A DNA stretch of 64,000 nt, taken from Pseudomonadota bacterium. GTDB taxonomy: Bacteria; Desulfobacterota; Binatia; UBA1149. The stretch covers positions 174 to 64,173 of the forward strand of contig JACNKC010000057.1 of assembly GCA_014382245.1 (NCBI GenBank), read 5' to 3'. A model generated the notes under the pieces. The model was not told the origin of the DNA. It made no database searches and saw only the letters and a list, made by a program, of their open reading frames with translations. The position numbers and the translations under genes were made by a program. Every line of letters starts with the position of its first letter. Position 1 is the stretch's first letter. Shown piece after piece: positions 15-31,357 of this stretch.

Positions 15-917
15 TCAAGCCCCGCGGATGAACGAAGAGATCGCTCGCAGCGGCTGCCGAGGGTAGACCTGCCCCTGCTTGGGCGGCATGGAATTGTAAA
101 CGTAATCGAGCTCCAGGTCGGATAGCAGTCGACCCCGGTGCCGCCAGGTACCCCGTACGAGTACGCTCTCCATGTCGAGATTGATGGCAAACACTGACAA
201 TTGCTGACCGGGTCGAGGGGGGCCTGAGCTTGCCCCTGCCGGTGTACCCGACATCAACAGCCGGCCGCTATTGGCGGCGGTGCATGGCAGGGGAAGTGAT
301 AGGCGGGGGTAGCCGTTGTCGGCTATCCAGGATGCGAACTTGAGTGTTCGTGGAGATCGTAGCAGTCGCTGTGCCCAGTTAGACAAGGCCGGGACGCTGC
401 CGGCGTCGCTCACCCGTAGTGTTCGAGCAGCGGCCAGCGCGCCGGCACCAAGCGCCAGGCGCAGCCTGGGCAGCGCGTGGTTCCCGGCGTAGTGAACGAG
501 GTCCAGGTAGTGGACAGTGTGCACGCCGAAGTAGGCGTTGTAGCGAAACATGGGTTTACTGTTGTAAGCGTCGAGGTCGGCGCCCCCGCTTGCCTTCTCC
601 GCCCAGTGCGCCGTACCGCTCCAGCAGCGGCCCCTGCTGTTTACTATCATGAAGGCCGCGCGCGGGTCCGATTGCAGGTGACTCTTGCCCAGCCCCTCGC
701 AGAACTGACCGAACATGAGCCGCGTGGGATCCTTGGCGTTGAGCGAGGTGATGAGCGTCACGTGGGGCAGCCCCTCGGGATCGCGGGTGGCCAGCAGCCC
801 GATTTTGGCGTCGACGCCAAACGCGGCCATGGCGGCTTGGTCCAGGGCGAGAGGGGGAGTAAGCCCGTCGCGGTCGCCGTTACGTGTGGGCACAGTCTTG
901 TTGCTCCTGTTCATCAT
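15..917 (-). CDS. PNPOx-like FMN-binding split-barrel family protein (about 300 aa), last gene of the GRE operon
   Basis: ORF 15..917. The internal segment GLLATRDPEGLPHVTLITSL is typical of pyridoxamine-5'-phosphate-oxidase-like flavin-binding proteins. Its ATG overlaps the stop of the upstream activase (ATGA coupling at 914-917). It is long for this family, so the start or domain structure is uncertain. Confidence 0.45.
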   Translation of the reverse strand: MMNRSNKTVPTRNGDRDGLTPPLALDQAAMAAFGVDAKIGLLATRDPEGLPHVTLITSLNAKDPTRLMFGQFCEGLGKSHLQSDPRAAFMIVNSRGRCWSGTAHWAEKASGGADLDAYNSKPMFRYNAYFGVHTVHYLDLVHYAGNHALPRLRLALGAGALAAARTLRVSDAGSVPALSNWAQRLLRSPRTLKFASWIADNGYPRLSLPLPCTAANSGRLLMSGTPAGASSGPPRPGQQLSVFAINLDMESVLVRGTWRHRGRLLSDLELDYVYNSMPPKQGQVYPRQPLRAISSFIRGA

Positions 918-2030: not shown

Positions 2031-4550
2031 CTAGGAATGCGCCTCCCTGGCTATGACTTCGTCCTGCAGTTCGCGGCCTATGCTGGTGAAGTAGGCGTTG
2101 TAGCCGGTGACGCGTACCAGCAGGTGGCGGTACTCGCCGGGGTTGAGCTGGGCGTCGCGCAGGGTGTCGGTGTCGATCACGTTGACCTGCAGGGCAGTGC
2201 CCCCGTTTTCGCAGTAGCCACGAAGAAACCCCTTGAACTTTTCGCGGTGCTCTGCGTCGCGCAGCAGCGATGGACTGAAGCTCATGGTATGGCTGGCGCC
2301 GTTGGGCAACGAGTTGCGGTAGTCCTGCCAATCTCCGTCGCTGCCCCGTCCACCCAGCGCCTGGCCAACCGAGTTGACGTTGGCCGTGGGGCCACTGGTA
2401 TCGGCGCCGTTGGACGGGCAAATGGCGTTGGACAGGAACCTGCCCCGCGGTCTTCCGTCGGCGCTCGCCGCCATGACGTAGCCGCCGTCCACCCAGTAGT
2501 TCCAGCTGAGCATGCCGGGACGAAAGCGCCGGCCGGTGCTGACCGTGCTGTGCTTCCAGGTTTCATCGGTCCACAGGTCCATCACGGCGCAGGCCATGGC
2601 GTCGGCCTCCTGTTGGTCGCGGCCGTACTTGGGCGCGCGCCAGCGGGCCCAGGCCTGCAGGGTCTCGTGCCCGTCCCAGTTGTCGCGCAGGGCCGCGGTC
2701 AGCTCCTCCATCGAGCACAGACCGCGGTCGTAGACCAGGTACTTTATCGCGCACAGCGAGTCCACGGTGGTGGCGAAGGTTACGCCCTCGAGCGTGGTAA
2801 GGTTGATCTCGGCGCCGCCGCGGGTGACGTCGGTGGCCGTTTCGGCGCAGCCGCCCACGAGGCAGGACAAGTAGGGCGTGGGGCTGAAGCGGGCGCGCAG
2901 GCTCTCGGTACGTTCGTAGAGGTCAACGCAACGTTGCACGATGAACTCGTTCTGCCTGCTGTAGGCCGCCCAGAAGTCTTCCCAGCGATCGAACTTCCCG
3001 GCGTCACCCGTGCGCGGGCCGTCTCGGCTGATTTCGCGGGACTCGCCGGTCACGGCGTCCATCGCGGGGGCGAGATCCTCGCCGCCTGTAAGCGCGAGTT
3101 CAACGGCCTTGAGCAGGTTGAGGTTACTGTCAACGGTTCCTGAACGGTCGTTGCCCACCATGGTGTTTTCCAGGCAGCCAACCGGCGCGTACTCGTGGAC
3201 GTTGTCCTCGTTTACGAGGTGCTGGTAGCCGGCCTCGGCGGCTTCGCGCATCATACCGGCCATGGATCTCTCGTCGAAGTTGAGCAGGAAGGGCGATCCG
3301 TGGCTGCGCGAGATCATGTCGACCACGGTGTCGAGCAGGCGGTTGGGAGAACCGCGGTGCAGCCGTACACTCGGCTTGGGCTCCAGTATGGGGCTCATCT
3401 CGTCGATGACCTCGAGGATGGCGTAGGTCAGGTCGTTGGTCGTGTCGACGCCCTCGGCTCCAATGCCCGAAAGCGTTATGAGCTGGCCGAAGCCGGAGGT
3501 GATTCCCTGGTTGCCGCCGATTTTTATCATGGCGTCGTAAGCCGTGTTGGCGTGTACCCAGAAGCAGCGCAGGATTTCTTTGCCGAACTCGCGATCCATT
3601 CCGTTCTCGATCGAGCGGCGCCAGCAGGGGTAGAGGTACTGGTCTACGCGGCCGAAGCTCAGGCCGGGGCCGGGGTAGTTTTCGTCGCTCATCACCAGCA
3701 TGTGGGTGAGCCACAGGGATTGTACTGCCTCCCAGAAGTTACGCGCGGGAAGCCAGGGCACGCGTTCCAGGTTGCGGGCCATGTTCTCGAGCTCCGCCCG
3801 GCGAGCCGGGTCGGCTTCGTCGCGGGCCTCGTCGCGGCAGCACCCGGCGTATTTTCCGGCCAATTCCCCGGGCATGAGAGCAGCAGTCATCATGGCGCGC
3901 AGTTGCGAGCCGGGTTGGCCGTTTTTAGCAGCGTGGTCGAGTGCGTCGTAGCGTTGTTCGAGGTCGCGGTGGATGGCTCCCCAGCCATGCTCGATCACCC
4001 GTGGGTAGTCGGGTAGCAAATGGCCGGAGGTAGCACCCGTGTTGCCGTAGCCGTGCTCGTGGAAATCCTTGATCGCGGCTCTCGTGCCGCGCGGGCCGTT
4101 GACCTCGGCATCGCGTCGACGGGCTTCCTCGCGGTTCCAGCAGCGCGAGGCGAGCAGGTTGAAGCGGGCCCCGGCTATGAGATCACCGGGCAGTATTTCC
4201 CGCGGCAACCTGTTGACCATTATTTCGCGGATCAGCCACGCGCGGCGCTCGGCGAGCCCCCGTTGCCAGAAGTCATCGGGCAGATCGACCCTGCGCGCAG
4301 CCTGCAGGGTGGAAGAGCGGAACGGTTGAAAGAACGCGTAGGTCTCCGGGACGATGTAGTAGGTGGTCTCGTCGTAGACCACGTCCCAGTCGGTACCGGT
4401 TGTCCAGCAACTGAACTCGTTGTTCCACTCGCGGTCTACGCCGCGAAAGTAGTAGTCGCGCAGCCACTGTGCGCGTGGGGACAACGCGCGGGGCGCGGGT
4501 ACAGCGGGTTGCTGTTCGCGGTGATTCGTTGCGTGTGCTGATCCTGCCAT
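2031..4550 (-). CDS. Glycyl radical enzyme (839 aa), eliminase/dehydratase-type rather than PFL-type; substrate unknown
   Basis: C-terminal glycyl radical motif LLVRVTGYNAYFTSI. Single-Cys thiyl loop PVGCLENTMVG (Cys-x-Glu, as in glycerol dehydratase/CutC/HypD/IslA-type GREs, not the CC of PFL). The size is typical of this class. An activase gene lies immediately downstream. Confidence 0.9.
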   Translation of the reverse strand: MAGSAHATNHREQQPAVPAPRALSPRAQWLRDYYFRGVDREWNNEFSCWTTGTDWDVVYDETTYYIVPETYAFFQPFRSSTLQAARRVDLPDDFWQRGLAERRAWLIREIMVNRLPREILPGDLIAGARFNLLASRCWNREEARRRDAEVNGPRGTRAAIKDFHEHGYGNTGATSGHLLPDYPRVIEHGWGAIHRDLEQRYDALDHAAKNGQPGSQLRAMMTAALMPGELAGKYAGCCRDEARDEADPARRAELENMARNLERVPWLPARNFWEAVQSLWLTHMLVMSDENYPGPGLSFGRVDQYLYPCWRRSIENGMDREFGKEILRCFWVHANTAYDAMIKIGGNQGITSGFGQLITLSGIGAEGVDTTNDLTYAILEVIDEMSPILEPKPSVRLHRGSPNRLLDTVVDMISRSHGSPFLLNFDERSMAGMMREAAEAGYQHLVNEDNVHEYAPVGCLENTMVGNDRSGTVDSNLNLLKAVELALTGGEDLAPAMDAVTGESREISRDGPRTGDAGKFDRWEDFWAAYSRQNEFIVQRCVDLYERTESLRARFSPTPYLSCLVGGCAETATDVTRGGAEINLTTLEGVTFATTVDSLCAIKYLVYDRGLCSMEELTAALRDNWDGHETLQAWARWRAPKYGRDQQEADAMACAVMDLWTDETWKHSTVSTGRRFRPGMLSWNYWVDGGYVMAASADGRPRGRFLSNAICPSNGADTSGPTANVNSVGQALGGRGSDGDWQDYRNSLPNGASHTMSFSPSLLRDAEHREKFKGFLRGYCENGGTALQVNVIDTDTLRDAQLNPGEYRHLLVRVTGYNAYFTSIGRELQDEVIAREAHS

Positions 4551-4566: not shown

Positions 4567-7479
4567 TCAGGCCGAGGCCATCTCGATCCGTGTCTCGCGG
4601 TCGCTCTGCCCGGGTTGCAGCGAGGCTGGTACCGGTCTCAAGTGATTGTAGCCGCCGGCCAGCTCCACCGGGTTGAGCGGGCTCGGTAGTACGTTGCGGT
4701 AGCCCTTGCCGCCGGGAAACTGGTAGTCCTCCCAGGCGTGGTAGAGGATCACCATGCCCGGGCGCACCGCGTTCGATAGCCGGGCCTTAACGCGGAACTC
4801 GCCCAGGTCGTTGAAGAGGCGCACCGTGTCGCCGTCCTTGATGCCGCGGCTGCGCGCGTCGGGTGCCGCTACGAAGGCGGCCGCTTCTCCGCGCTGCAGT
4901 TGCAGCAGCAGGTCGAGGTTGCGCCAGCCGGCGTGGATGCTCCAGCGGGTGTGGCCGCCGCTGAGCACCAGCGGGTAGTCTCCCCCCGGTCGGGGTACGG
5001 GCAGGTGGGCAGGCAGTTCCTGTCCGAGTTCGAGGTACAAGGGGTGGTCGATGTAAAACTGCACCCTGCGGGTGAGCGTGGGCCAGGGGCCGGGATTGCT
5101 GCGACGCCAACCGCGGTTGACCACCGGTTGGTCGGGCGTCACGTCCGTGGCATTGCCCAGGTTGAAAGGGTGCGTGCCTATTCCGGTTATTCTTTTGAAG
5201 CCATCGTGCCGGAGTTCTTCGAAACCGCCGTCCACGAAGCCGGTCTGTTTTACTATTTCGTGTGCGACCTGCGATTGGGCATGTTCGTCGAAGCGGCCGT
5301 TGAAGGTAAAGCGATGGCCGAAATCATCGAGTCTCTGCTCGTTGCCGTGGCGGTCGCGAAAAGAGGAGACGCCCCGTTCGCGCGCGCGTCGTTCCACCCA
5401 CCGGGCCAGCTCCGCGTGCATGTTCCACTCGGGCTTGCACTCGCCCAGGGGTTCGACGGCCGCCTGGGTGATGTGCAGGTAAGGTGAAAGCAGCGTGAAC
5501 CAGTTGGGTACGTCGTCTTTTTCGTAAGAAGACGCGCCTGGCAGCAGTATGTCGGACTGCAGGCAGGTGGTCGACATGCGCAGGTCGCAGGTGACTACCA
5601 GTTTTATTTTCGGCCAGGCCGTTTCGAGCAGGCGTTGCGCGCTACGCAGGCGCCTCAGTAAATTGCTGCCCGCGACCACGAGCACCCGCGGGGGATCTGC
5701 CGGCGGGCGCTTCTGCCAGTTGTTGTTGTAGGACTCCTCGACGTACTCGTCGATGGGGCGGGGCAGTCGCCTGCCGTGCTCGCCGTCGGTCACCCGGGAC
5801 AAACCGCCGTGGCGTCGCCAGTAAAGCACCGACGATACCACCGACGAATCGTTCATGTAGTCGCGAAAGGCGTCGTATACATAGCGCTCGGTACTGTCGC
5901 CCGCCAGTCGCCGGCCGAGCAGCGCGGGTAGGTGCTTGAGCTTGGCGGCCAGTCCCTCCCACTGGCTGGCGCCGACGGAATCCATGCCCTGCGTCCACAG
6001 GAACGGAGTTGTGTCGAAGCCGGCGCCCGGCTTTCCCACGTGCCCGCCCAGCATGAAAAGCAGCAGTTGCGCCCGCATGATGATGTCGCCGTTGTAGAGC
6101 TTGGGAATAGACGAACCGGCTACGCCGGCCATGGCGCGTGCCCCGGCCACCATATCGGCGAAACGGTGGATGGTTTCAGCCGAGCAGCCGCACAGCTCTG
6201 CCGCTTTTTTGGGCGTGTAGTCCGCGTCGAGTCGCTGGCGCAGGATTTCGAGTACCGGGCGCACGCGGACCGGTCCGTTGTTGGTGCTTACCGTGTAGTT
6301 GCCCTCGAGCGCGGGCGTAACCCCTGCCCAGTCCAGGTCGAAGGGAGCGGGGGAGGGCAGGCCGAGCGAGGGATCCCAGGCGTAGAACTGTTCCTGGCGG
6401 CCGCCTGTGACGAGATCGCTTTCGCGCAGGTAGTGGCCGTCGTCTTTTACCAGCAGTACGAGGTCGGTCTGCGAGCGTACGAAGTCAGCGTCTATGCTGC
6501 CTCGTTCCAATAGTACCTGGCAGGCGGCCAGGGCCAACGCGGCGTCGGTCCCGGGGCGCACGCCTATGAACAGGTCGCTGTGGATGCTCGAGGCCGAGTA
6601 GTCGGTGGCGATGGTGACCACGCGGGTGCCGTTGTAACGGGCCTCGTTGATGAAGTGGGCATTGGGAATCTGCGTGTAAACGGGGTTCGCACCCCAGACC
6701 AGTATGAGATCGGAGTGGAAGAAGTCGTCGGCCGAGCGTGACGATACCGGTGTGCCCATGGTCACCGCTGCGCCGGCCTGCCCGTCGTCGAGCTCGGTGT
6801 TGGTGTCGAGCTCTATGCCGTCGAGCATGTCGACCAGGCGCTGCACGCCCAGCCTCCACGTGGCCGACGCCAGGCTGCCACCGGGCTCAAGGGCCACCGA
6901 GTCGGGACCGGCGAGGGTCACCGCGTCGATGAGCTGGTCGGCGGTCTCGCGGTAGGCTTCGTCCCAGCTGATGCGCTTCCATTTGCCCGAGCCTCTGGGC
7001 CCGACACGTCGCAGCGGGTAGCGCAGGCGGTCGGGCGCGTACATGAGCGCGGAGTAGCAGGCGCCTTTCTGGCAGCCGCGGGGATTGAAGTCGGGTACCT
7101 CGTCGTTTACCGCGGGGTACTCGCCGGCCTGTTCCTCGCGCACGACCACCCCGTCGCGCACGTAGACGTCCCAGGAGCAGTTGCGCTGGTACCAGCAGTT
7201 GACGACGTGCGTACAGCGCACGCGCTTGTCCCAGGCAAGCCGTTGCAGGTAGACGTCCTTCCAGTCGCCGTAGCCCCTTGCTGGAGCGTGGGGCGCGACC
7301 GTACTCGCGGTTGACGTTTCGTATTGGCCGGCATCGCGGTGGCAAGCCGGGACCAGCCCGCCCAGCACGAGGATTGCTGCGCCGCTGCTGCCGCGCCTTA
7401 CGAATTCACGCCTGCTTATTGTTGTTGCCACGCTCGCATCCGTGCCACGTCGGCGCGGGGTGTCGCACACCCCACGCAT
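4567..7479 (-). CDS. TAT-exported molybdopterin (bis-PGD) oxidoreductase alpha subunit, type II DMSO-reductase/NarG-like clade
   Basis: Twin-arginine signal SRREFVRRGSSGAAILVLGG. N-terminal FS0 region GDWKDVYLQRLAWDKRVRCTHVVNCWYQRNCSWDVYVRDG closely parallels the NarG/EbdA/SerA block (W.D.YR..W.WDK.VRSTHGVNCTGSCSW.IYVK.G) and is followed by PRGCQKGACYS (NarG PRGCPRGAS-like). At 970 aa it matches the Mo-bisPGD catalytic subunit. No beta/gamma/delta subunit genes are nearby. Confidence 0.8.
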   Translation of the reverse strand: MRGVCDTPRRRGTDASVATTISRREFVRRGSSGAAILVLGGLVPACHRDAGQYETSTASTVAPHAPARGYGDWKDVYLQRLAWDKRVRCTHVVNCWYQRNCSWDVYVRDGVVVREEQAGEYPAVNDEVPDFNPRGCQKGACYSALMYAPDRLRYPLRRVGPRGSGKWKRISWDEAYRETADQLIDAVTLAGPDSVALEPGGSLASATWRLGVQRLVDMLDGIELDTNTELDDGQAGAAVTMGTPVSSRSADDFFHSDLILVWGANPVYTQIPNAHFINEARYNGTRVVTIATDYSASSIHSDLFIGVRPGTDAALALAACQVLLERGSIDADFVRSQTDLVLLVKDDGHYLRESDLVTGGRQEQFYAWDPSLGLPSPAPFDLDWAGVTPALEGNYTVSTNNGPVRVRPVLEILRQRLDADYTPKKAAELCGCSAETIHRFADMVAGARAMAGVAGSSIPKLYNGDIIMRAQLLLFMLGGHVGKPGAGFDTTPFLWTQGMDSVGASQWEGLAAKLKHLPALLGRRLAGDSTERYVYDAFRDYMNDSSVVSSVLYWRRHGGLSRVTDGEHGRRLPRPIDEYVEESYNNNWQKRPPADPPRVLVVAGSNLLRRLRSAQRLLETAWPKIKLVVTCDLRMSTTCLQSDILLPGASSYEKDDVPNWFTLLSPYLHITQAAVEPLGECKPEWNMHAELARWVERRARERGVSSFRDRHGNEQRLDDFGHRFTFNGRFDEHAQSQVAHEIVKQTGFVDGGFEELRHDGFKRITGIGTHPFNLGNATDVTPDQPVVNRGWRRSNPGPWPTLTRRVQFYIDHPLYLELGQELPAHLPVPRPGGDYPLVLSGGHTRWSIHAGWRNLDLLLQLQRGEAAAFVAAPDARSRGIKDGDTVRLFNDLGEFRVKARLSNAVRPGMVILYHAWEDYQFPGGKGYRNVLPSPLNPVELAGGYNHLRPVPASLQPGQSDRETRIEMASA

Positions 7480-7600
7480 CTACGTGGCGGGCAAGGGCAA
7501 CAAGGGCAGCGGAGCGGAAGCCAGTATATTCGACCTGGCCGGCTATGACAACGCTGAATGGGTGACAGTCTTCCCCCGCGATATACGGCCCGGCCAGTTG

Positions 7601-8848
7601 TCAGCGCAGGTTGGCCAGGTCGATGCTCTTGGGGAAAATCCCGCGGTTGGCGCGGTCGCGCTCCTCCAATCGCTCAATTTCAGCTTCGGGCAGGCCGGCT
7701 TCGGCCATCAGTTCACGGGCGTGCTCTCCTAGCACTGGAGAGGCTGAGCCCAGCCCGGGCTCCTGCCCGTCGAAGGCCAGCGGCGGTCGCGGCAAGCGGC
7801 AGCTTCCGCCCTCGGGGTGCTCGGCTTCGACCAGGGTGTTGCCGTGTCGGACCTGGGGATCCTCGTGAACGCGGTTCACCGGGTTCACCCGGGCCGAGGG
7901 CACGTCAAGCTCGTCGAGCAAGCGGCACAGCGATTCGGTGTCGCGGTCGGCGAGTACGGCGTCCATCTCCTCGGCCAGCTGCTGCCTGTTGGCCACGCGC
8001 CCCCCGAAATTGGCAAACCTGGGATCGGCGTGCAGCTGGCAGCCAAGCGCCTCGCACAGGGCGGCAAAGTCGCTGTCGACTATCAGTATGGTCGACACGT
8101 GGCCGTCGCTGGTGGCAAACAACGGGAAGTAATCGGCAAGTGCCCCCTGTTCGTTTATCTCGTCGCCCAGCAGGGTGTGCTGCCACATGGCGTCGGGCCA
8201 CAGGAAGTACAGCCCCGCGTCCATCATCGACACGGGCAGGAACTGGCCCCGGCCGGTACGCTCGCGCTGAAGCAGCGCTGCGGTTACGGCCTGGGCGGCC
8301 GTCATGCCCGAAACCTTGTCGAACAGCACTGTGCGCACGTTGGCCGGCCTGTCGCCGCCGCCCTGCGCCCCGGCCATGCCGATGGTGGCCTGTACCAGGG
8401 GATCGTACACGCGGCGGTGGACGTAGGGCCCCGACTGCCCGTAGCCAGTGATAGACCCGTAGACGAGGCGGGGATTGACGGCTGCCAGCGACTCGTAGTC
8501 GACACCCAGCTTTGCCGTGACCCCGGGGCGGTAGTTTTCGATAAGCACGTCGGCGGTTTCTACCAGACGCCGCAGGATGGCCGCGTCGTCTGCCTGCTTG
8601 AGGTCCAGGGCTATCGAGCGCTTGTTGCGGTTGAGCACCGAGAACTGTGCGGCGACCCCGTTCCGGTTGTTGCCCATGAAACGCGCGAGGTCACCGGTAC
8701 CCGGCGGCTCAACCTTGACCACGTCGGCGCCCTGGTCGGCCAGTATCATGCCGGCAAGCGGACCAGACACAGTGGAGGTGAGTTCGATGACGCGGTAGCC
8801 GGCCAGCGGCCCAGCGACGGTACGTTGACCATATCCTTTATTCGCCAT
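7601..8848 (-). CDS. CoA-transferase family III (CaiB/BaiF/Frc-like) protein
   Basis: GPLAGYRVIELTSTVSGPLAGMILADQGADVVKVEPPG...IENYRPGV...GSITGYGQSGPY are family-III CoA-transferase hallmarks. Start set at internal ATG (MANKGYGQRTVAG, 416 aa) rather than the 603-aa ORF whose N-terminal extension is low-complexity. There is a 120 bp gap to the Mo-enzyme gene on the same strand. Confidence 0.8.
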   Translation of the reverse strand: MANKGYGQRTVAGPLAGYRVIELTSTVSGPLAGMILADQGADVVKVEPPGTGDLARFMGNNRNGVAAQFSVLNRNKRSIALDLKQADDAAILRRLVETADVLIENYRPGVTAKLGVDYESLAAVNPRLVYGSITGYGQSGPYVHRRVYDPLVQATIGMAGAQGGGDRPANVRTVLFDKVSGMTAAQAVTAALLQRERTGRGQFLPVSMMDAGLYFLWPDAMWQHTLLGDEINEQGALADYFPLFATSDGHVSTILIVDSDFAALCEALGCQLHADPRFANFGGRVANRQQLAEEMDAVLADRDTESLCRLLDELDVPSARVNPVNRVHEDPQVRHGNTLVEAEHPEGGSCRLPRPPLAFDGQEPGLGSASPVLGEHARELMAEAGLPEAEIERLEERDRANRGIFPKSIDLANLR

Positions 8849-10700: not shown

Positions 10701-11775
10701 CAGCGGCAAGCGCGGCGGCGGCATCGGCCATGGCCTGGCGCGCCCCGCGGCTCACCTGGGTGGTGTTGGCAAAGCCGTGCACTTGGCCTTCGACACGGCA
10801 CAGCGTTACCGGCACTCCGGCCAGTTCGAGTCGCTCGGCGTATGCTTCGCCCTCGTCTCTGAGGGGGTCGAAGCCGGCCGTGGTGACGTAAGCCGGTGGC
10901 AGGCCCGAAAGGTCTTCTGCCAGCAGCGGCGAAGCCGAGGGGTCTTCGACGGCCTGCTGGCGGTCACCCGTGTAGTGGCGGATGTACCACTCCATCTGCG
11001 AGGCGGTCAGAAAAAAACCGTCGGCGAACAAGCGGTACGATTCGCTGCGGGCCGACAGGTCGGTGACCGGGTAGATTGGCAGCTGGAAGGCCGGCGAGGG
11101 TCCGCCGTCGCGCGTGGCGCGCAGCGAAACCGAGGCCGCCAGGTTGCCACCGGCGCTGTCGCCGCCAACCGCCACCCGCGATGCGTTGATGGCCAGGCGC
11201 TCGGCGTTTTCGAGCGCCCAGCGAAACGCCGCCAGGGCGTCGTCGGTCGCCGCCGGAAAGGGATGTTCGGGGGCCAGCCGGTAGTCCACCGATAATACCT
11301 TGACGCCGGCCTTCTCTGCGAGGAATCGGCAGGGCTGGTCATGGCTGTCGATGCTGCCCACCACCCATCCTCCACCGTGGTAGTAGACCAGCAGGCCGCC
11401 GCCATCGGCGCAAGCGTGGGGCACGTAGAGTCGCGCGGCGAGTTCGCCGTCCGCGCCAGCGCAGGAGAGTTCCTCGACGCGTTGCATGGCTATGGGTTCA
11501 CCGCTTGCGACAGCCGCGCCGCTTTCGATGTGCTGCCGTACCTCGGCCACGGTCAGGTCGTCGTATGATGGGTGATCGTCGAACGACATCGCGAGCAGCA
11601 GCAGTTGCACGTCTGCGTCCAGCGTGAGGCCATCCACGCGGGTGGAACTGCCACCGGCGAGCAGGAGCTGCAGGCGTTCGGGCAGAGCCATCATCGATCG
11701 CAGCAACAGGCGTTGGGCTTTTTCAGCGAGGCCGAGCGGGCGTGGTTCCATGGTGGTCATCCTCCGCGGCAACAC
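10690..11775 (-). CDS. Alpha/beta hydrolase, HSL-family esterase/lipase (Aes-like)
   Basis: Contains the HGGG oxyanion motif (LLVYYHGGGWVVGS) and the nucleophile elbow GDSAGG, both typical of hormone-sensitive-lipase-family esterases. Confidence 0.8.
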   Translation of the reverse strand: MLPRRMTTMEPRPLGLAEKAQRLLLRSMMALPERLQLLLAGGSSTRVDGLTLDADVQLLLLAMSFDDHPSYDDLTVAEVRQHIESGAAVASGEPIAMQRVEELSCAGADGELAARLYVPHACADGGGLLVYYHGGGWVVGSIDSHDQPCRFLAEKAGVKVLSVDYRLAPEHPFPAATDDALAAFRWALENAERLAINASRVAVGGDSAGGNLAASVSLRATRDGGPSPAFQLPIYPVTDLSARSESYRLFADGFFLTASQMEWYIRHYTGDRQQAVEDPSASPLLAEDLSGLPPAYVTTAGFDPLRDEGEAYAERLELAGVPVTLCRVEGQVHGFANTTQVSRGARQAMADAAAALAAAIA

Positions 11776-11852
11776 GATTACGATATCGCGGAGGGCGAGA
11801 CCAGGGCCGGCGGGTAGTTACATATCGGGGACAAGATGATAAAAGGCTTGGG

Positions 11853-12674
11853 GTGGAAGTTCTTCTTACAGGCGCGGCCCTCGGGGCCGAAGTAAGGGGG
11901 CTTGATCTCACCCGCGAATTGACGGGTACAGAGTTAGCAGCGGTGACGGCGGCGCTGGTCGAACACAAGGTGCTGTTTTTTCGCGACCAGCCTCTTGGGC
12001 CGGCCGACCACCACCGCTTTGCGTCATACTTCGGGCCGCTGCAACGCCACCCCGCGTTTCCGCACGTGGACGACTACCCCGAGCTCACCATACTCGAAAG
12101 CGACCGCGCGCGTCCTTCAAAAATAGACAAGTGGCACTGCGACATGACTTACCTCGAGTGCCCACCGCTGGGCAGCGTGCTCAGGGCTACCGTCATTCCT
12201 GACAAGGGCGGCGACACGATGTGGATGAATCTCGAGGCGGCCTGGCAGGCGCTGCCCCTGGACTTGCAGCAAAGGTTGGCCCAAATGCAGGCCGAGCACA
12301 GCTTTGCGCATGGCTACCGAGAGAGCCTGGCCGAACCCGGCGGCAGGGACCGTCTCGCGCGGGCCGTGGCCGACAACCCGCCCGTGCTGCACCCGGTGAT
12401 GCGTCGTCACCCGGTCAGCAAGCGGCCCTGCTTGTTCGTCAACAGCCTGTTCACCACGCGCCTGCTTGGCATGGAAGAACGCGAGAGCGAGCAACTGCTG
12501 GCGCGGCTGTACGCGCACATCGAGAAGCCGGAGTTTCGGTACCGCTTCAGTTGGGAGGTCGACTCGATCGCTTTCTGGGACAACCGAGCCACGCAGCATA
12601 AGCCGGTACAGGATTGGTGGCCGGCGCGGCGTTGTCACCAGCGCATTACCATAGAGGGCGACAGACCGGTGTGA
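11853..12674 (+). CDS. TauD/TfdA-family Fe(II)/2-oxoglutarate dioxygenase (taurine dioxygenase-like)
   Basis: Aligns by eye along its length with E. coli TauD, including WHCDMTYLECPP (TauD WHTDVTF), the GGDTMW metal-binding region and C-terminal WDNRATQHK. Start moved to in-frame GTG at 11853 (MEVLLTGAALGAEVRGLDLT matches the TauD N-terminus, with an AAGG RBS). The ORF finder start was 11742. Confidence 0.8.
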   Translation: MEVLLTGAALGAEVRGLDLTRELTGTELAAVTAALVEHKVLFFRDQPLGPADHHRFASYFGPLQRHPAFPHVDDYPELTILESDRARPSKIDKWHCDMTYLECPPLGSVLRATVIPDKGGDTMWMNLEAAWQALPLDLQQRLAQMQAEHSFAHGYRESLAEPGGRDRLARAVADNPPVLHPVMRRHPVSKRPCLFVNSLFTTRLLGMEERESEQLLARLYAHIEKPEFRYRFSWEVDSIAFWDNRATQHKPVQDWWPARRCHQRITIEGDRPV

Positions 12675-16653: not shown

Positions 16654-16869
16654 GCTGCAGCCGTTTCGTGCGTGCCAGGGTCGGGCGGTGCGACGCCGGG
16701 CCACGGGCAGGAGCATGACCCACCGGGCGGAGGCTTGTCAAGGTTGTATCGTTAGGTGGTGGGTGGCTTTGTTGCCTTTACCGCCAATGAAGGTGACATT
16801 CTCCTGGCCGGGTATATTCCGGGTACCCGGGTCGCGAGCTCACGTGGCCCGGCGCAACTGGGGGAGCAC

Positions 16870-17865
16870 GTGGAGTATGCAGTAGTAGTCGGGGGAGGGC
16901 AGGTCGAGCAGGAAGGGCACGGCCTGGAGGCCTTTGTTGGGCAGGCCCAGCTGGCCGAGTCGCTGGGTTATACGACCGTCTTCGTGCCCGACCATTATCT
17001 TTTTGAACAGATGGGCGAGCTCAAGACCGAGCAGCCAACCTACGAGTTGTTTGCGCTGCTTGGTGCCATCGCCCAGCGCACGCGCAGCATCAAGCTGGGC
17101 AGCCACGTGGCCTGCACGCTGTTTCGTCACCCGGCCATGCTCGCTCGCCAGTTTGCCCAGCTCGACGAGCTCAGTGGAGGTCGCGTGATTGCCGGCGTGG
17201 GTGCGGGCTGGACGAGGTCCGAGTTCGAGATGTTCGGACTGGACTTTCCGCCGGTGTCCGAGCGCCTGCGTATGATGGACGAGGCGGTGGAGATCATGCA
17301 GGCACTGTGGACCGGCGAGCCCTGCAGTTTTGACGGCGAGCACTATCGCCTGCGCGACGCCGTGGCCAGGCCGACCCCGACGCAACAGCCGCGACCACCG
17401 CTGATGCTGGGCGGCGGTGGCAAGGGCATACTCCGGCGCGCCGGGCGCTGGGCCGACATCCTCCACATGGTGCCCGAGATCGGCAAGGCCGGTACGACCA
17501 CGATGGAGAACGTGTCCGCCTTTCACGACGACGTGGTGGCAGAAAAGCTAGCACTGGTGCGAGAGGAGGCCAAGGATGCCGGCCGGCCGGACGGTGCCGT
17601 GCGCTACGCTACGACGATTTTCGTTTACCAGCCCGCCGACAGTGAGAAGCAGGCCGCCGAGACCGCCGAGGGCGCGGCTGCCATGTTCGGGCTCACGGCC
17701 GAGCAGTTCTGCCGTCACCCGGCCGTGCTCGCGGGAACTACCGATCAGATGGTCGAGGAACTGCAGCGTCGTGAGCGCGTGCACGGATTGTCCATCGTTG
17801 CGCTGGAGGCGACCGGGCTCGACAGTATCCGCAATTTCGCCGAGCGTATAATCGCCAACGGCTAA
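16870..17865 (+). CDS. LLM-class (luciferase-like) flavin/F420-dependent oxidoreductase
   Basis: GSHVACTLFRHPAMLARQFAQLDELSGGRVIAGVGAGW...FDGEHYRL and C-terminal LMLGGGGKG are signatures of the luciferase-like monooxygenase family. Start moved to in-frame GTG at 16870 (331 aa, typical size). Confidence 0.75.
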   Translation: MEYAVVVGGGQVEQEGHGLEAFVGQAQLAESLGYTTVFVPDHYLFEQMGELKTEQPTYELFALLGAIAQRTRSIKLGSHVACTLFRHPAMLARQFAQLDELSGGRVIAGVGAGWTRSEFEMFGLDFPPVSERLRMMDEAVEIMQALWTGEPCSFDGEHYRLRDAVARPTPTQQPRPPLMLGGGGKGILRRAGRWADILHMVPEIGKAGTTTMENVSAFHDDVVAEKLALVREEAKDAGRPDGAVRYATTIFVYQPADSEKQAAETAEGAAAMFGLTAEQFCRHPAVLAGTTDQMVEELQRRERVHGLSIVALEATGLDSIRNFAERIIANG

Positions 17866-17875
17866 CAGGGTGGAC

Positions 17876-18664
17876 TCAGGCCGCCGGCCAGGCCGTGCCA
17901 CCGTCCACCTTTATTACGGCGCCGGTGGTGTAACTCGAAGCGTCGCTGGCCAGGTACAACGCCGCTCCCACGATCTCGTCGGGTCGGCCGCCGCGCTGCA
18001 ACGGTATGTGGGCGGCGGCGCTCTGTTCGAAGGCATCCATGTCCCAGGCCTTGGCTATGTCGGTGAGAAACGGCCCGGGCATGATGCAGTTGACCCTGAC
18101 CGAGGGAGCGTAGGCTCTGGCTAAGCCCAGGCTGAGCGCGTTGAGCCCGGCCTTGGCCGTGGCGTAGGGTAGCTCGTTGGGCGTGGGCTGCACCGCGGCG
18201 ATGCTGCTCACGTTGATAATAGACCCACCGTCGCCCGCCGCCATGCGCTCGCCCACGAGCGCCGACAGCCTGAAGGGCCCCTTGAGGTTTACTCCTATGA
18301 CCTTGTCGAAGAGTTCTTCGCTGACCTCGGCGAGCGAAGGGTACAGCGGCGACATGCCGGCGTTGTTTACCAGCACGTCCACGCGGCCGAAGTGCTTGTA
18401 GGCCGTGTCGACCAGCTCCTGGCACTGCTGCCAGTGGCCGGCGTGAAAGCCTACCCCCAGCGCGTGTCGACCGGTGAGCTCGGTGAGCTGCGTGGCCAGC
18501 TCCTCGCATGCCTTCTCCTTGCGGCTGGCGACCACCACCTCGGCGCCCGCGCGGGCGAAAGCCATCGCCATCTCCCTGCCCATGCCGCGGCTGCCGCCGG
18601 TGACCAGAGCCACGCGGCCCTCGAGATTGAAGAGATCGTTTGCCTGCGAGTCGTTTCTTTTCAC
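17876..18664 (-). CDS. SDR family NAD(P)-dependent oxidoreductase
   Basis: Cofactor motif VALVTGGSRGMG, NNAG motif VLVNNAG and a YATAK catalytic Tyr/Lys. Start set to in-frame GTG at 18664 (AGGAAAA RBS-like), trimming the ORF finder N-terminal extension. Confidence 0.8.
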   Translation of the reverse strand: MKRNDSQANDLFNLEGRVALVTGGSRGMGREMAMAFARAGAEVVVASRKEKACEELATQLTELTGRHALGVGFHAGHWQQCQELVDTAYKHFGRVDVLVNNAGMSPLYPSLAEVSEELFDKVIGVNLKGPFRLSALVGERMAAGDGGSIINVSSIAAVQPTPNELPYATAKAGLNALSLGLARAYAPSVRVNCIMPGPFLTDIAKAWDMDAFEQSAAAHIPLQRGGRPDEIVGAALYLASDASSYTTGAVIKVDGGTAWPAA

Positions 18665-18789
18665 GATTTTTCCTGTTTTCACGGGTGGAGTGACTGTCTT
18701 TCTGCCTGATGTGCAAGGCTGATACGAGGCATTTGCCGTTGCCTTTCGGTCGGCAGCGAGCAGCACGGCCGCAGGCGCGCTACAATGGC

Positions 18790-19005
18790 CCGATGAACAA
18801 TGTCATCAACGGTCGTCGTGCTGCCTGGATGTGGGTCGTCTTGCTGCTCGGCTGTTTCATGAGCTCCGGCTGCCTGCTGACCAAGATCGTTTCGGTGCCA
18901 CTGCGGGTCGTCGGTGCGGTGGTTTCCATAGTCCCGATCGCGGGCAACCAGGCCCACGACGCCATCGACGCCACGGCCGACACCCTCGACGAACTGCCGT
19001 TTTGA
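18790..19005 (+). CDS. Small hypothetical lipoprotein/membrane protein (about 71 aa)
   Basis: Internal Met gives MNNVINGRRAAWMWVVLLLGCFMSSGC: a positive n-region, a hydrophobic core and an LLGC lipobox-like site. It ends exactly at the start of the next gene. Weakly supported. Confidence 0.3.
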   Translation, partial: PMNNVINGRRAAWMWVVLLLGCFMSSGCLLTKIVSVPLRVVGAVVSIVPIAGNQAHDAIDATADTLDELPF

Positions 19006-20148
19006 TTGCCGCGGGGTACCTGGGTGGCTGATGATTACGAAGCGGTGATGGCGGCCGCGGTGGGCCCGCTGCTTGCCAGTCTTGACGGCTTCGAGCAGCT
19101 GCAGCGCCGGCTGCATCCGCCCGAGCTGCCCGCCCTGCGCGCAGCCATGAAACCGGTGGGACAGCGCCTGGCCTCGGGGCTTGACGGCATTGCGGCTGCC
19201 AGCCCGCCCGAGGCCTTGCGCGGCTTTAATGACCAGCTGTTGGCCGGTGGCCGATCGCTTGCCGAGGCCTTCGATCTTTTCTGCTCAGAGGCGGCGGCCG
19301 AGCAGGCCATCATGCAGGTGCTCGCGTCGATGGGTGCCTTCACCCGTTCGCTCGAACAACTCTACCCACTGCGCACCTTCCCGCCGCTCGGGCGATTCTT
19401 TGTCGAACAGGAGTTTCACGATCGCCTCGACGAGCTTGATCCCGAGTCGCGCGAGGGCGTGGCCACGGGGGTGCACCTGGGCGGTGACGCCAACGATCGC
19501 AAGGCCCGCGGTGGCTTCGCGCTCTACGTTCCCGAGTGGTGGGACGGCAGCGCCGAGATGCCGCTCGTGGTAGCCCTGCACGGAGGCTCGGGCGACGGGC
19601 GCGGTTTCATGTGGAGCTGGCTGAGAGAGGCCCGCGGCCGTGGGTTTTTTCTGCTCGCCCCCACCGCCCAGGGCTCGACCTGGTCGATGATGGGCGAAGA
19701 CATCGACGGCCCGGCCCTGCGGGCCATGGTAGAGCTGGTCGCCGAGCGCTGGCCGGTAAAGCGCTCGAGTATCCTGCTCACCGGCCTGTCCGACGGTGCG
19801 ACTTACTCGCTGCTCACCGGCCTTGCCGAAGACTCACCCTTTACCGCGTTTGCTCCGATGTCGGGGGTACTGCACCCCGGAAATCTCGAGCGAGGCAACA
19901 TGCAGCGCGCCGCGGGCAGGCGTATTTATCTCGTGCATGGCGCCTTGGACTGGATGTTCCCGGTGGAAACAGCGCGCTGGGCGGCCGGGCAGCTGGGCGA
20001 TGCCGGCGCCGAGCTGGTGTACCGCGAAATAGAGGACCTGTCGCATACCTATGCCCGCGACGAAAACGACCGTATACTGGATTGGTTCGATGCTTCGCTG
20101 GCCCTGCCCGGCGACGGCGAGAAGAACAAGGGAGGAAACGAAACATGA
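19006..20148 (+). CDS. Alpha/beta hydrolase, esterase/PHB-depolymerase-like family
   Basis: VVALHGGSGDGRGFMWSW... and the nucleophile elbow LTGLSDGA are typical of phospholipase/carboxylesterase/PHB-depolymerase-type esterases. Its stop overlaps the next gene's start (ATGA). Confidence 0.65.
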   Translation: MPRGTWVADDYEAVMAAAVGPLLASLDGFEQLQRRLHPPELPALRAAMKPVGQRLASGLDGIAAASPPEALRGFNDQLLAGGRSLAEAFDLFCSEAAAEQAIMQVLASMGAFTRSLEQLYPLRTFPPLGRFFVEQEFHDRLDELDPESREGVATGVHLGGDANDRKARGGFALYVPEWWDGSAEMPLVVALHGGSGDGRGFMWSWLREARGRGFFLLAPTAQGSTWSMMGEDIDGPALRAMVELVAERWPVKRSSILLTGLSDGATYSLLTGLAEDSPFTAFAPMSGVLHPGNLERGNMQRAAGRRIYLVHGALDWMFPVETARWAAGQLGDAGAELVYREIEDLSHTYARDENDRILDWFDASLALPGDGEKNKGGNET

Positions 20149-20534
20149 CTATCGATCTATGGATGCTGGTTTACTGTTGTACCCTGGCGCTGCTTAGCCC
20201 CGCGTTGTACCTGGTCGGACGTTTCGGAGCGGCCGGTGGCATGGAGTGGCTGCTGGGCAACCGCGACAGCTCGCTCGGTGTGCCAGCGTGGACCGACCGT
20301 GCCGTGCGTGCCCACTACAACCTCATCGAGAGCCTGGTACCGTTTGCCGCTCTCGTGCTGGTGGCCCACACGGCGGGCCTGGCCAACGAGACCACGGCCC
20401 TGGGCGCCACGGTGTTTTTCTGGGCCCGCGTTCTTTACGTGCCAGTGTATACGGCCGGCCTTCGGCCCTGGCGCACGCTGGTCTGGTTCGTGGGCCTGGG
20501 CGGGCAGATCATGATACTGGGCGAGTTGCTCTGA
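20145..20534 (+). CDS. MAPEG-family membrane protein (130 aa)
   Basis: About 130 aa, four predicted TM segments, with the Arg/Tyr-rich loop (RAVRAHYNLIESLVPF...FWARVLYVPVY) typical of MAPEG/MGST-like proteins. Strong RBS GGAGGA and ATGA overlap with the esterase stop. Confidence 0.65.
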   Translation: MTIDLWMLVYCCTLALLSPALYLVGRFGAAGGMEWLLGNRDSSLGVPAWTDRAVRAHYNLIESLVPFAALVLVAHTAGLANETTALGATVFFWARVLYVPVYTAGLRPWRTLVWFVGLGGQIMILGELL

Positions 20535-20544
20535 AGCGTAGCGA

Positions 20545-20922
20545 TCAGTCGCGCCAGGCCAGCAGTTGCAGCATGGATCTGCCAGTGACGCGCAGGGTGC
20601 CGAAGACATAAACCAGGCCGATCATGCCGTCGAAGACCACCAGCCCGTAGAGCTCCTCGCCCGCCAATCCAGCGGGTACCGCGTAAAGGACCGCGGCGGC
20701 GGCCGACAGTCTGACCAGGCCTTGCCAGACGATGACCGGCGCGCGTCCAGCTATGTCTTTTGACGCCCACACCAGGCATGCCGCAGCCATCATCAAGAAC
20801 ATGCCCAGTGTCAACAGCGGTACGAAGTGCTGGGGCACCGGGTCGGAGACTGCCCCGTACCAGGTACCCAGCCCCACCAGGTAGTCCAGGGCACCGGTGA
20901 TAAGAACAAATTTCTGCAACAT
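20545..20922 (-). CDS. Hypothetical small integral membrane protein (125 aa)
   Basis: Three to four hydrophobic segments with no recognisable motif. Coding-like codon usage in an otherwise unassigned gap. Confidence 0.35.
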   Translation of the reverse strand: MLQKFVLITGALDYLVGLGTWYGAVSDPVPQHFVPLLTLGMFLMMAAACLVWASKDIAGRAPVIVWQGLVRLSAAAAVLYAVPAGLAGEELYGLVVFDGMIGLVYVFGTLRVTGRSMLQLLAWRD

Positions 20923-20981
20923 GCTTGTCTCTCCTTTATTTCGGTTCGTGGTCCTTTCCGCCCCTTGCCTCGCGCAGGGGA

Positions 20982-22244
20982 TCAGTCCTCACCCGCGGCC
21001 TCGGCGTCAAATTCAATGTACATCTCTTTTACGCCCGAGATGAAATTGGACACCAGCTGACGGTGCTCGCCCAGCAGGCGGGGGTTGCGCAGGCGCGGTA
21101 TCATTTCTTCGAACATAACGGTCAGCTCCTTGCGCGCCAGGTGTGAGCCCAGGCAGAAGTGCTGGCCTATGCCGAAGGTGCGGTGCTCGCTTTTGAGCTC
21201 GGGCATACGCTGCGCGCGGGTCACGTCGAAGGCTTCCGAATCGGGTCCGAACACCGACTGCTCGTGGTTGGCCGAAGGGTAATACATGCGCAGGATGTCG
21301 CCTTTTTTTACCTGCTTGTCGCCCACGGTGACGTCGCGGGTGGCGGTGCGCTGCATGTAGTTGAAGGACGGATGATAGCGCAGGATTTCTTCTACCGCGC
21401 CTGGTATCAGCGAGGGGTCGTCTACCAGCAGTTGCAGTTGCTCGGGGTGCTCGATGAGCAGGCGCATGCCCTGGCTGGTGGCCGTTCTCGTGGTCTCGAT
21501 TCCGCCGGCGATCAGTATCAGGAAGAAGGCGCAAAACTCGAATTCGTCGAGGGCCTCGCCTTCGACCACGCCGTTGAGCAGGGCGTCGAGCACGGTGCCC
21601 TCCCTGGGATTGGTCTTGTGCTCGGCGGCCAGGCCCATGGCGATTTCGAACAGGCGCGCTGCAGCCAACTGGCCGTCTTCCGAGCTCACGTTGAGCTCGG
21701 GGTCGTCCATGCCGATCATCACGTCCACCAGGTCCGAGAATTCCTTGCGTTTTTCTGAGGGCATTTCCATGAGTGCGCAGATGACGAACAAGGGCATCTC
21801 GGCAGCCACCTCCGAGGCGAACTCGCAGCGTCCCCTCGCCGCGATCTTGTCGATGATCTCGCGGGCGCGTTCTCGCATCATGGGCTCGAGCGCATCGACA
21901 GCGCGCAAGGTGAAGGCGTTGCGTACAACCTTGCGGTACTGGTTGTGGTCGGGGGGATCCATGTTGATGATCAGCCGCCGCATGATTTCCTGCTCTGCCG
22001 GGTCGTCGCCGGCGGGATGCGGGTGCGCCATGTTTATCGACGACGAGAACAGGCCGGGGTTCTTGGAGACAAAATCTATCTCCTCTCGCCTGGTGAGCGC
22101 CCAGAACTCGCCCGAGTGCTCGGTCGCATCCTGCCTTGAGACCGGGCACTGGCTCCTGAGCGTGGCCAGGTCTTCAAACGGTATGCCGTGGCTCATGCGC
22201 TCGGGGTCCATGAGGTTGAACTGGTAGGGGCATTCGTCGTTCAT
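20982..22244 (-). CDS. Cytochrome P450 monooxygenase
   Basis: Canonical heme-thiolate signature FGIGQHFCLGSHLARKE (FxxGxHxCxG), the EEILRY (ExxR) motif and the AGGIETT I-helix oxygen-binding motif. 420 aa. Confidence 0.9.
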   Translation of the reverse strand: MNDECPYQFNLMDPERMSHGIPFEDLATLRSQCPVSRQDATEHSGEFWALTRREEIDFVSKNPGLFSSSINMAHPHPAGDDPAEQEIMRRLIINMDPPDHNQYRKVVRNAFTLRAVDALEPMMRERAREIIDKIAARGRCEFASEVAAEMPLFVICALMEMPSEKRKEFSDLVDVMIGMDDPELNVSSEDGQLAAARLFEIAMGLAAEHKTNPREGTVLDALLNGVVEGEALDEFEFCAFFLILIAGGIETTRTATSQGMRLLIEHPEQLQLLVDDPSLIPGAVEEILRYHPSFNYMQRTATRDVTVGDKQVKKGDILRMYYPSANHEQSVFGPDSEAFDVTRAQRMPELKSEHRTFGIGQHFCLGSHLARKELTVMFEEMIPRLRNPRLLGEHRQLVSNFISGVKEMYIEFDAEAAGED

Positions 22245-22324
22245 GTTATCTCCAGGGGGGTATCAGACGCCTCCCCCTTTTAGCGGGGCGGGGTTGGCTT
22301 GGCCAGCCCCGCGGTGCAGGGTGG

Positions 22325-27829: not shown

Positions 27830-28854
27830 GGAATCAGCGCCAGGCGGATGGGCGAGTTTCGGCGAGAGTCGAGGTCGGCGAAGGCCGAGGCGGCGTCCTC
27901 GAGCGGGTAGCGTTCGGTTATCGATCGCGAAAGATCCAGCGTGCCCGCCGCCGCCATCTCTACCACGCGGTCAAGTTCGGTACGGGTGTAGCCCATCGAG
28001 CCGGTGATCGAGATCTCCTTGCCTATGAACGAGACCAGCGGTGGCAGGCGAGGGCGGTCGATGCCCACGCCGCCGAGCACCACGCGGCCGCTTCTTGCCA
28101 CGCAACGCAAGGCCAGCGAAACGGTGGCTTCGCCGCCTACGAATTCGATCACGCAGGCCGGTCCCTCGCCGCCCGCTGCCCTGCGAACCTGCCGATGGGC
28201 GTCGTCGGCGCGACCGTCCACGCAGACATTGGCACCGGCAGCGCGCGCTTTTTCCAGCGCGCCTTCGCTGGCGTCGATCGCTACCACGGTGCCTGCTCCC
28301 AGTATGCGAGCGAGCAACAAAACGTGGTAGCCAACGCCGCCGCAGCCTATTACGGCCAGGCTCTCGCCAGGCTGCAAGGCGCCGCGCGTAGCAACGGCGT
28401 GGTAGGCAGTGGCCACCGCGTCGGCCAGTATGGCCCCGTGTTCAAAGGGGAGGGTGTCGGGCAGCGGCAGCGTGCAGGAGGCCGAAGCGACTACGCGCTG
28501 AGCAAAAGTACCGTCGCGTGCCATGCCGAAAATCTGCGCGCTCGCGCACAGGCCCAGGTGCCCGTCAAGGCAGGGACCGCACTCGCCGCAGGTCTCGCTG
28601 GGCAACAACAACACGCGGTCGCCCACCGTGCGGTCGGTAACCCCGTCGCCGACCGCGGACACGACGCCGGCACCCTCGTGTCCCATGACTACCGGAAGGC
28701 CAGGCAGCGGTAAACGGCCGTGCACGGCGTGCAGGTCGGTGCCACACACGCCGGCGGCTTTTATATCTACGAGCACTTCGCCCGGGCCAGCGACGGGCTC
28801 GTCTACTTCTTCTACTTCGACCCTGTTTTCCGGGTGCAGTCTTACCGCTTTCAT
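27826..28854 (-). CDS. Zinc-dependent alcohol dehydrogenase (MDR family)
   Basis: Catalytic zinc motif GVCGTDLHAVHG, the MGHEGAGVV region, a structural-zinc Cys cluster (CGECGPC) and the Rossmann GCGGVG. Confidence 0.85.
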   Translation of the reverse strand: MKAVRLHPENRVEVEEVDEPVAGPGEVLVDIKAAGVCGTDLHAVHGRLPLPGLPVVMGHEGAGVVSAVGDGVTDRTVGDRVLLLPSETCGECGPCLDGHLGLCASAQIFGMARDGTFAQRVVASASCTLPLPDTLPFEHGAILADAVATAYHAVATRGALQPGESLAVIGCGGVGYHVLLLARILGAGTVVAIDASEGALEKARAAGANVCVDGRADDAHRQVRRAAGGEGPACVIEFVGGEATVSLALRCVARSGRVVLGGVGIDRPRLPPLVSFIGKEISITGSMGYTRTELDRVVEMAAAGTLDLSRSITERYPLEDAASAFADLDSRRNSPIRLALIP

Positions 28855-28877
28855 GTTCCTGTCTCCGCTGCCTGTTT

Positions 28878-31336: not shown

Positions 31337-31357
31337 GTTGGTCTCTCCCGCTGCCGG

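Follow-up and report, generated by a model that had tools for sequence, protein, structure and literature searches.

What does a catalytic subunit of the type-II DMSO-reductase family do when no gene for its usual partners lies nearby? The question is raised by a gene at positions 4567–7479 (minus strand) of a 64,000-nucleotide stretch, hereafter the window, of contig JACNKC010000057.1 (assembly GCA_014382245.1), which comes from a bacterium of the GTDB lineage Binatia. The gene encodes an alpha subunit resembling those of ethylbenzene dehydrogenase (EBDH) and steroid C25 dehydrogenase (S25DH). We consider it probable that its product is an exported hydroxylase alpha subunit of the EBDH/S25DH type, and that the gene is a satellite paralogue using beta, gamma and delta proteins encoded elsewhere in the genome. 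The contexts of orthologous genes, the genomes of relatives and the literature together point to such a partnership in trans.

The alpha gene and its predicted product

The gene and the elements within it that bear on its function are as follows.

4567–7479, minus strand: alpha-subunit gene, EBDH/S25DH-like, type-II DMSO-reductase family; the longest uninterrupted open reading frame (ORF) has 970 aa
7342–7431, minus strand: twin-arginine (TAT) signal peptide region, residues 17–46, S22-R23-R24-E-F-V followed by a hydrophobic stretch; RR motif in 10/10 proteins of clade A, the clade of the window gene (see below)
7072–7209, minus strand: FS0 [4Fe-4S] binding segment, H91-x3-C95-x5-C101-x34-C136; the four ligands are invariant in 21 homologues
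6784–6786, minus strand: codon of D232, aligned with the Mo-coordinating Asp223 of EbdA; Asp in 110/111 other alpha subunits
6100–6102, minus strand: codon of K460, aligned with the active-site Lys450 of EbdA; Lys conserved family-wide in the alignment

The product contains the Pfam domains Molybdopterin (PF00384, 4e-39) and Molydop_binding (PF01568, 1e-16). Among the NCBIfam models TIGR03479 (type-II DMSO reductase alpha subunit) scores best, with 797 bits, ahead of those for EbdA (552 bits) and NarG (271 bits). The N-terminal block W..D.Y....W.WDK.VRCTHVVNCWYQRNCSWDVYVRDG, known from NarG, EbdA and SerA, is present; the N-terminus reads ...SRREFVRRGSSGAAILVLGGLVPAC...YGDWKDVYLQRLAWDKRVRCTHVVNCWYQRNCSWDVYVRDG..., and the TAT motif is SRREFVRRG, after which a hydrophobic stretch begins. 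The initial annotation had recognised both this block and a type-II alpha subunit of the EbdA kind with a TAT signal, without stating the strand, and our searches (TIGR03479, 797 bits; EbdA, 538 bits; SRREFV) agree with it.

The score of 797 bits lies under the curated TIGR03479 threshold of 984.75, and so do those of alpha subunits from bona fide alpha–gamma–beta–delta clusters (891, 923, 975 and 977 bits). The threshold does not part members from non-members in this environmental radiation; the low score of the window protein accordingly shows how far the radiation has diverged and does not place the protein outside the family. Against the EbdA equivalog NF042978 the 552 bits stand far from the cutoff of 2000; by this measure the window protein is not an EbdA orthologue. 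The GC content at third codon positions (GC3) is 0.81, typical of coding sequence, and the alpha sequence is identical across several assemblies. Judged from its sequence, the gene is real and intact and encodes an exported type-II alpha subunit of the EBDH/S25DH branch.

Assemblies call the start of the gene differently (window 7366–7479, minus strand), giving products of 970, 954 or 933 aa. The alternative GTG start at 7431 yields the 954-aa protein. The 933-aa calls of some assemblies begin within the signal peptide and drop the conserved twin-arginine motif, a call that would mislead a prediction of localisation. An exact look-up with the 970-aa product returned no match because the assemblies call the protein at 954 or 933 aa. 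Genomic contexts in other assemblies were obtained with the 954-aa form and with the neighbouring glycyl radical enzyme (GRE) as queries.

Cofactor ligands

The H-x3-C-x5-C spacing of the FS0 motif had been read as a departure from a canonical H-x3-C-x3-C. The spacing itself is correct (H91, C95, C101), but the description as a variant is not. In EbdA of known structure (PDB 2IVF) the motif reads SHLNICWPQGSC, the same H-x3-C-x5-C, and the NCWYQxxC form is nearly universal among the ~128 EBDH-like alpha subunits aligned from 85 loci; only PcrA has x3 (HLVNCTGAC). The FS0 spacing of the window protein is therefore ordinary.

In an alignment of 21 homologues, which took in alpha subunits from canonical clusters, H91, C95, C101, C136 and D232 are invariant, and the FS0 ligands align with the motif of EbdA and PcrA. 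D232 also aligns with the Asp of PcrA and is the predicted Mo ligand. The residue just before it, D231, is a clade-specific substitution and forms part of a signature private to clade A, NTELDDGQ. The Mo-ligand assignment is one by alignment; the AlphaFold2 (AF2) model is of low confidence at residues 228–245. That model (pLDDT 70.5) had 2IVF_A as its top Foldseek match (TM 0.73/0.78), followed by PcrA, NarG and Nxr. It backs the alpha fold and not the ligand geometry, its cofactor loops being of low confidence.

Absence of partner genes in cis

Profile hidden Markov models were built from related loci (30 beta, 19 gamma, 23 delta and 9 cluster-cytochrome sequences). They gave zero matches at E ≤ 1 to beta, gamma, delta or cluster-type cytochrome c among all window ORFs of at least 60 aa (64 kb) and at locus L001, in line with the earlier statement that the window holds no such gene. 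In other assemblies of the source organism the sequence continues for 8 kb to the left of the window, and beta, gamma and delta genes are absent from that stretch as well. Canonical partners in cis are thus confirmed to be missing from the window and from these 8 kb, so that on the left side the condition named as refuting the initial annotation, canonical partner genes just outside the window, does not hold. The 8 kb carry a gene for a trypsin-like protease and then a minus-strand NapA-type operon.

In locus L086 this operon occupies 17009–22520 (2.5–8 kb past the left edge, minus strand) and encodes a NapA-like catalytic subunit, two small c-type cytochromes, a DsrO-like iron–sulfur protein with its own TAT signal, a DsrP-like NrfD protein and a 489-aa multihaem cytochrome. 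The layout is unusual for the Nap type. As a missing beta subunit the iron–sulfur protein was rejected: it scored 108 bits on the beta profile, against 570–678 bits for true beta subunits, is DsrO-like, has its own TAT signal and is encoded beside the NapA-like subunit. The operon therefore encodes a complex of its own, catalytic subunit included.

The ferredoxin motifs at 48.2 kb were likewise rejected as a partner of the alpha subunit: they make up the N-terminal part of a DUF3604 protein of 854 aa that is encoded 38 kb from the alpha gene. A scan of all six frames found no other ferredoxin-type motifs in the window. The protein itself (45775–48339, minus strand) is a fusion of an N-terminal ferredoxin domain with two CxxCxxCxxxCP motifs to DUF3604. 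In locus L003, too, a DUF3604 gene (650 aa) occurs, 2 kb upstream of the clade-A alpha gene.

Relatives of the window gene and their partners

Homologues of the window protein fall into three tiers. Clade A, which includes it, comprises sequences of 61–71% identity with a bootstrap support of 100/100, from metagenome-assembled genomes (MAGs) of uncultured Binatia, Myxococcota and 'Deltaproteobacteria'; all 10 proteins have a TAT signal. The clade scores under the curated thresholds of existing models, and the new subclade that the initial annotation had contemplated is distinct and well supported. A neighbour-joining tree nests the window protein among EBDH-like sequences relative to PcrA. A second, canonical tier consists of ordinary EBDH-like alpha subunits of 43–47% identity. 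Some homologues of 44–46% identity, and their beta subunits, are labelled 'steroid C-25 hydroxylase' by JGI, which is an annotation and not a test.

A related clade, clade C, is ~50% identical to the window protein and stems mostly from Chloroflexota MAGs (L005 10001–12778, L018 9116–11884, L014–L017 and L033). Its proteins have no signal peptide, keep the FS0 and Asp ligands intact, and are encoded without beta, gamma or delta genes within 10 kb on either side in 7/7 loci. The genes are embedded in clusters for enoyl-CoA hydratase, acyl-CoA dehydrogenase, CoA-transferase and NMO. A sister relationship of clades A and C was not relied on, its support being only 23/100.

Some clade-A orthologues lie close to canonical clusters. 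In three MAGs (L009, L030 and L008; 61–67% identity) the orthologue adjoins such a cluster: in L009 and L030 it is divergent from an alpha–gamma–beta–alpha operon on the opposite strand, and in L008 it is convergent with an alpha–alpha–alpha–delta operon, whose last gene, delta, lies 11 bp away. Two MAGs, OFTM47 (L012, L053) and Dive96_bin2.95 (L007, L028), combine a dispersed clade-A copy with a full cluster elsewhere. Among the loci retrieved, type-II beta, gamma and delta genes occur in at least five of the nine MAGs that bear clade A.

A layout with several alpha genes is shared by relatives of the window gene and has been described in Sterolibacterium denitrificans, where eight alpha paralogues (S25dA1–8) coexist with fewer beta–gamma genes and sharing has been proposed (PMC6016249). 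Purified S25DH1 is alpha1–beta3–gamma3, with SdhD as a necessary chaperone (PMC6016249). The ordinary part of the family has many orphan alpha genes too. When other loci with at least 8 kb of flank on both sides were counted, partners were missing in 13/28 of those in the canonical tier. Enzymes of this type are thus not invariably encoded with a beta subunit, a gamma subunit and a chaperone, as had been assumed, and for S25DH the sharing of beta–gamma among dispersed alpha paralogues is documented (PMC6016249).

Neighbouring genes

The genes on either side of the alpha gene, which lie on the same strand, and a promoter candidate are listed below.

2031–4550, minus strand: GRE of the 1,2-eliminase branch, 839 aa, GCLE at 458 and RVTGY at 813; its start lies 16 nt past the alpha stop and is preceded by the ribosome-binding site AAGGAA
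914–2020, minus strand: GRE activating enzyme, radical SAM, CxxxCxxC at residue 40; TIGR02494, 277 bits, above cutoff
15–917, minus strand: PNPOx-like (FMN-binding split-barrel) protein, third gene of the conserved GRE trio
7601–8848, minus strand: family-III CoA-transferase, 415 aa, upstream neighbour of the alpha gene; gap to alpha 120–170 bp
7523–7551, minus strand: sigma-70-like promoter candidate, TTGTCA-17-TATACT (10/12), between the CoA-transferase and alpha genes; a match to the consensus only

A terminator-like site was not found between the alpha and GRE genes, and the alpha gene appears to be co-transcribed with the genes for the GRE, its activase and the PNPOx-like protein. The initial annotation had overlooked the adjacent GRE and activase, and the 'adjacent flavoprotein' that it offered as an electron partner is not adjacent to the alpha gene; it is the third gene of the trio. 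The best solved relatives of the GRE are HypD, IslA and CutC, at only 245–264 bits, and the PNPOx-like protein has no sequence relative in the PDB. A paper on a limonene GRE was rejected as an explanation of the trio, the enzyme in question being a fumarate-adding succinate synthase.

The genes for the GRE, its activase and the PNPOx-like protein recur as a fixed group of three in over 20 loci of other organisms (L090 and L100–L117 among them; 62–74% identity), from MAGs labelled Spirochaetota, Syntrophales, Deltaproteobacteria, Dormibacteraeota and Bradymonadales. An alpha gene lies near the trio in none of these loci, and no GRE was found in the other clade-A loci. The juxtaposition of alpha and GRE genes, which is the same in at least five independent assemblies of the source organism, is therefore specific to that organism, and a conserved alpha–GRE association was rejected. 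In OFTM47 a GRE trio lies ~14 kb from a canonical EBDH-like cluster on the same contig, and weak GRE-like matches occur 8–10 kb from alpha genes in L036 and L074.

As a recurrent neighbour of alpha genes the family-III CoA-transferase is a weak candidate, found in only 10/84 loci of EBDH-like alpha subunits. In L092 (4136–11812) a canonical alpha–gamma–beta–delta cluster is directly preceded by genes for a fused 790-aa family-III CoA-transferase, an OYE-like reductase and a MaoC-like hydratase.

The window as a whole mixes O2-dependent enzymes with acyl-CoA metabolism (a ligase, an enoyl-CoA hydratase, a thiolase-like protein, two acyl-CoA dehydrogenases and a carboxyltransferase), short-chain dehydrogenases/reductases and an aldehyde dehydrogenase. 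The O2-dependent enzymes are a P450 (20982–22244), luciferase-like monooxygenases (16756–17865 and 39015–39992) and TauD dioxygenases (11742–12674 and 23569–24669). Their presence on one contig with a strictly anaerobic GRE and Mo enzyme suggests a facultative lifestyle. A minus-strand block at 27826–34900 encodes a Zn-dependent alcohol dehydrogenase, an acyl-CoA ligase, a short citrate-synthase-like protein (294 aa), an enoyl-CoA hydratase, a 153-aa ORF, a thiolase-C-like protein and an acyl-CoA dehydrogenase. The citrate-synthase-like protein (30452–31336) is 52–55% identical to one encoded directly upstream of the clade-C alpha genes in L005 (7234–9973 block) and L018, and the alcohol dehydrogenase is 44% identical to a neighbour of the clade-C alpha gene in L005. 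The shared pair is a soft hint that these alpha subunits feed a related CoA-ester pathway.

Weighing the explanations

Several observations weigh against partners shared in trans. The window and the 8 kb beyond its left edge hold none; seven of ten distinct clade-A loci are without a partner in their retrieved flanks; and the OFTM73 MAG has five alpha loci with no partner in any flank. Even beside a cluster, in L008, L009 and L030, the clade-A gene sits on the opposite strand and is never co-transcribed with partners. A profile of seven beta subunits run against a 5.8-billion-protein set placed none on the 366,477-bp contig of the source organism among the best 120 of 7172 matches; on so small a share of the matches the search is uninformative, not negative. 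Three candidate betas, picked by source profile (P0351, P0262 and P0344), were rejected because they come from other samples and other organisms. Clade C, moreover, looks truly partnerless, so that free-standing operation in this part of the tree is conceivable. The window protein might then truly stand on its own in the periplasm, as a monomeric Mo-bisPGD/[4Fe-4S] enzyme that dispenses with beta and gamma and passes electrons from FS0 to a soluble or membrane-anchored cytochrome c, for example a nearby multihaem one. The missing partners in cis, the partnerless and opposite-strand clade-A loci, the signal-less clade C and the multihaem cytochromes encoded ~2.5 kb beyond the operon all speak for it. 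Those cytochromes, however, belong to the NapA-type operon with its own catalytic subunit, and the FS0 region is neither lost nor remodelled in sequence. A partnerless alpha gene does not imply a free-standing enzyme, because three orthologues adjoin canonical clusters, far above chance, at least five of the nine clade-A genomes have beta, gamma and delta genes, partnerless genes are equally common among ordinary-clade alpha subunits (the 13 of 28 loci above), and a sharing mechanism is documented for S25DH (PMC6016249). Nor, for the same reasons, does the unusual electron-transfer partner follow that the initial annotation had called for. We regard the free-standing enzyme as unlikely.

The company of the GRE trio invites another explanation, compatible with either a satellite or a free-standing alpha subunit, in which the Mo enzyme hydroxylates a substrate and the GRE eliminase cleaves or dehydrates the product, or a downstream vicinal hydroxy compound, within one new anaerobic pathway. 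It is consistent with the 16-nt spacer and its ribosome-binding site, the missing terminator-like site, the promoter-like site upstream of the alpha gene, the constancy of the arrangement among assemblies of the source organism, and the GRE genes or matches in OFTM47, L036 and L074. Against it stand the many trio loci without an alpha gene and the other clade-A loci without a GRE; the alpha subunit is exported, whereas GREs are cytoplasmic; and the conservation of the GRE family over several phyla suggests a function independent of a rare alpha clade. We judge such a pathway to be quite improbable. The broader proposition, that the protein is a Mo/[4Fe-4S] hydroxylase exported by TAT as a monomer and active without beta and gamma, that it is coupled in function to the co-transcribed trio, or both, seems to us plainly unlikely. 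Least of all do we believe in a decaying, non-functional remnant left after the loss of partner genes. Only the absence of nearby partners speaks for one, whereas the ORF has its full length and matches EbdA from one end to the other, no cofactor ligand has been lost, GC3 is of the coding type, several assemblies carry the identical sequence, and the clade has been kept at 61–71% identity across Binatia and Myxococcota MAGs.

A probable satellite paralogue with partners in trans

As the satellite alpha subunit that we favour, the window protein would be the catalytic subunit of a periplasmic, water-dependent Mo hydroxylase/dehydrogenase. The source organism would carry several such alpha subunits, like its relatives, and the beta, gamma and delta genes would lie elsewhere in the genome and be shared among them. 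Cofactor insertion into the alpha subunit would involve a NarJ/SdhD-type chaperone, after which the TAT system would export the protein together with an EbdB-type iron–sulfur beta subunit. Electrons would pass from Mo to FS0, on to the clusters of the beta subunit, to a haem-b gamma subunit and finally to a cytochrome c. The substrate is probably either a hydrophobic compound of the alkyl or isoprenoid type or a carboxylate that is processed further on as its CoA ester. That the alpha gene came to head a transcription unit with the GRE trio is most likely a matter of joint regulation of anaerobic enzymes rather than of a reaction that they share.

Under anoxia, enzymes of the EBDH and S25DH type use water to hydroxylate unactivated C–H bonds, and no more than a handful have been characterised. 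Clade A is robust and uncharacterised and is found in uncultured, paralogue-rich bacteria of the Binatia and Myxococcota type, a sign that a wide variety of specificities among anaerobic hydroxylases has yet to be tapped. As both the FS0 motif and the orphan status are normal for the family, the window gene adds one more uncharacterised member to the EBDH/S25DH-like hydroxylase alpha family and does not found a new enzyme type. If the alpha subunit were an exported monomer, or part of a Mo-hydroxylase/GRE pathway, the mechanism behind the locus would deserve serious attention; coupling to the GRE would amount to a new anaerobic catabolic route that joins a Mo hydroxylase to a glycyl-radical eliminase. 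The more promising leads are the signal-less, partnerless clade C, which makes a stronger case than the window gene for a cytoplasmic type-II alpha subunit that truly stands alone, and the conserved GRE–activase–PNPOx trio.

Comparison with known systems

The best solved relative is EbdA of Aromatoleum aromaticum (PDB 2IVF), which aligns end to end over alpha residues 22–966 with 538 bits. The two proteins share the TAT signal, the H-x3-C-x5-C-xn-C FS0 motif, the Mo-ligand Asp (D223 in EbdA, D232 in the window protein) and the Lys (K450 and K460). They differ in their overall sequence (~33% identity) and at two positions, where His192 and Gly222 of EbdA are Ser and Asp in the window protein; ebdA, moreover, is encoded with ebdBCD, whereas the window gene is without partners in cis. 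PcrA (PDB 4YDD) and NarG (PDB 1Q16) have the same type-II architecture, Asp ligand and N-terminal His/Cys3 FS0, but their matches to the window protein (454 and 231 bits) fall below that of EbdA, and both are oxyanion reductases, not hydroxylases. PcrA further differs in its x3 spacing and in a His in place of the EBDH-type Lys.

Clade C resembles the window protein in sequence (~50% identity), in the FS0 and Asp ligands and in flanks devoid of beta, gamma and delta genes; unlike it, clade C lacks a TAT signal and lies within CoA-ester clusters, whereas the window protein keeps its TAT signal. The S25dA1–8 proteins belong to the same enzyme branch as the window protein, whose relatives also have several alpha subunits per genome. 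Clade A is a separate, uncharacterised clade. S25dA1, like the window gene, is not encoded together with a beta–gamma–delta partner set, and the S25dA1–8 alpha subunits work with beta–gamma proteins encoded elsewhere and a chaperone (PMC6016249).

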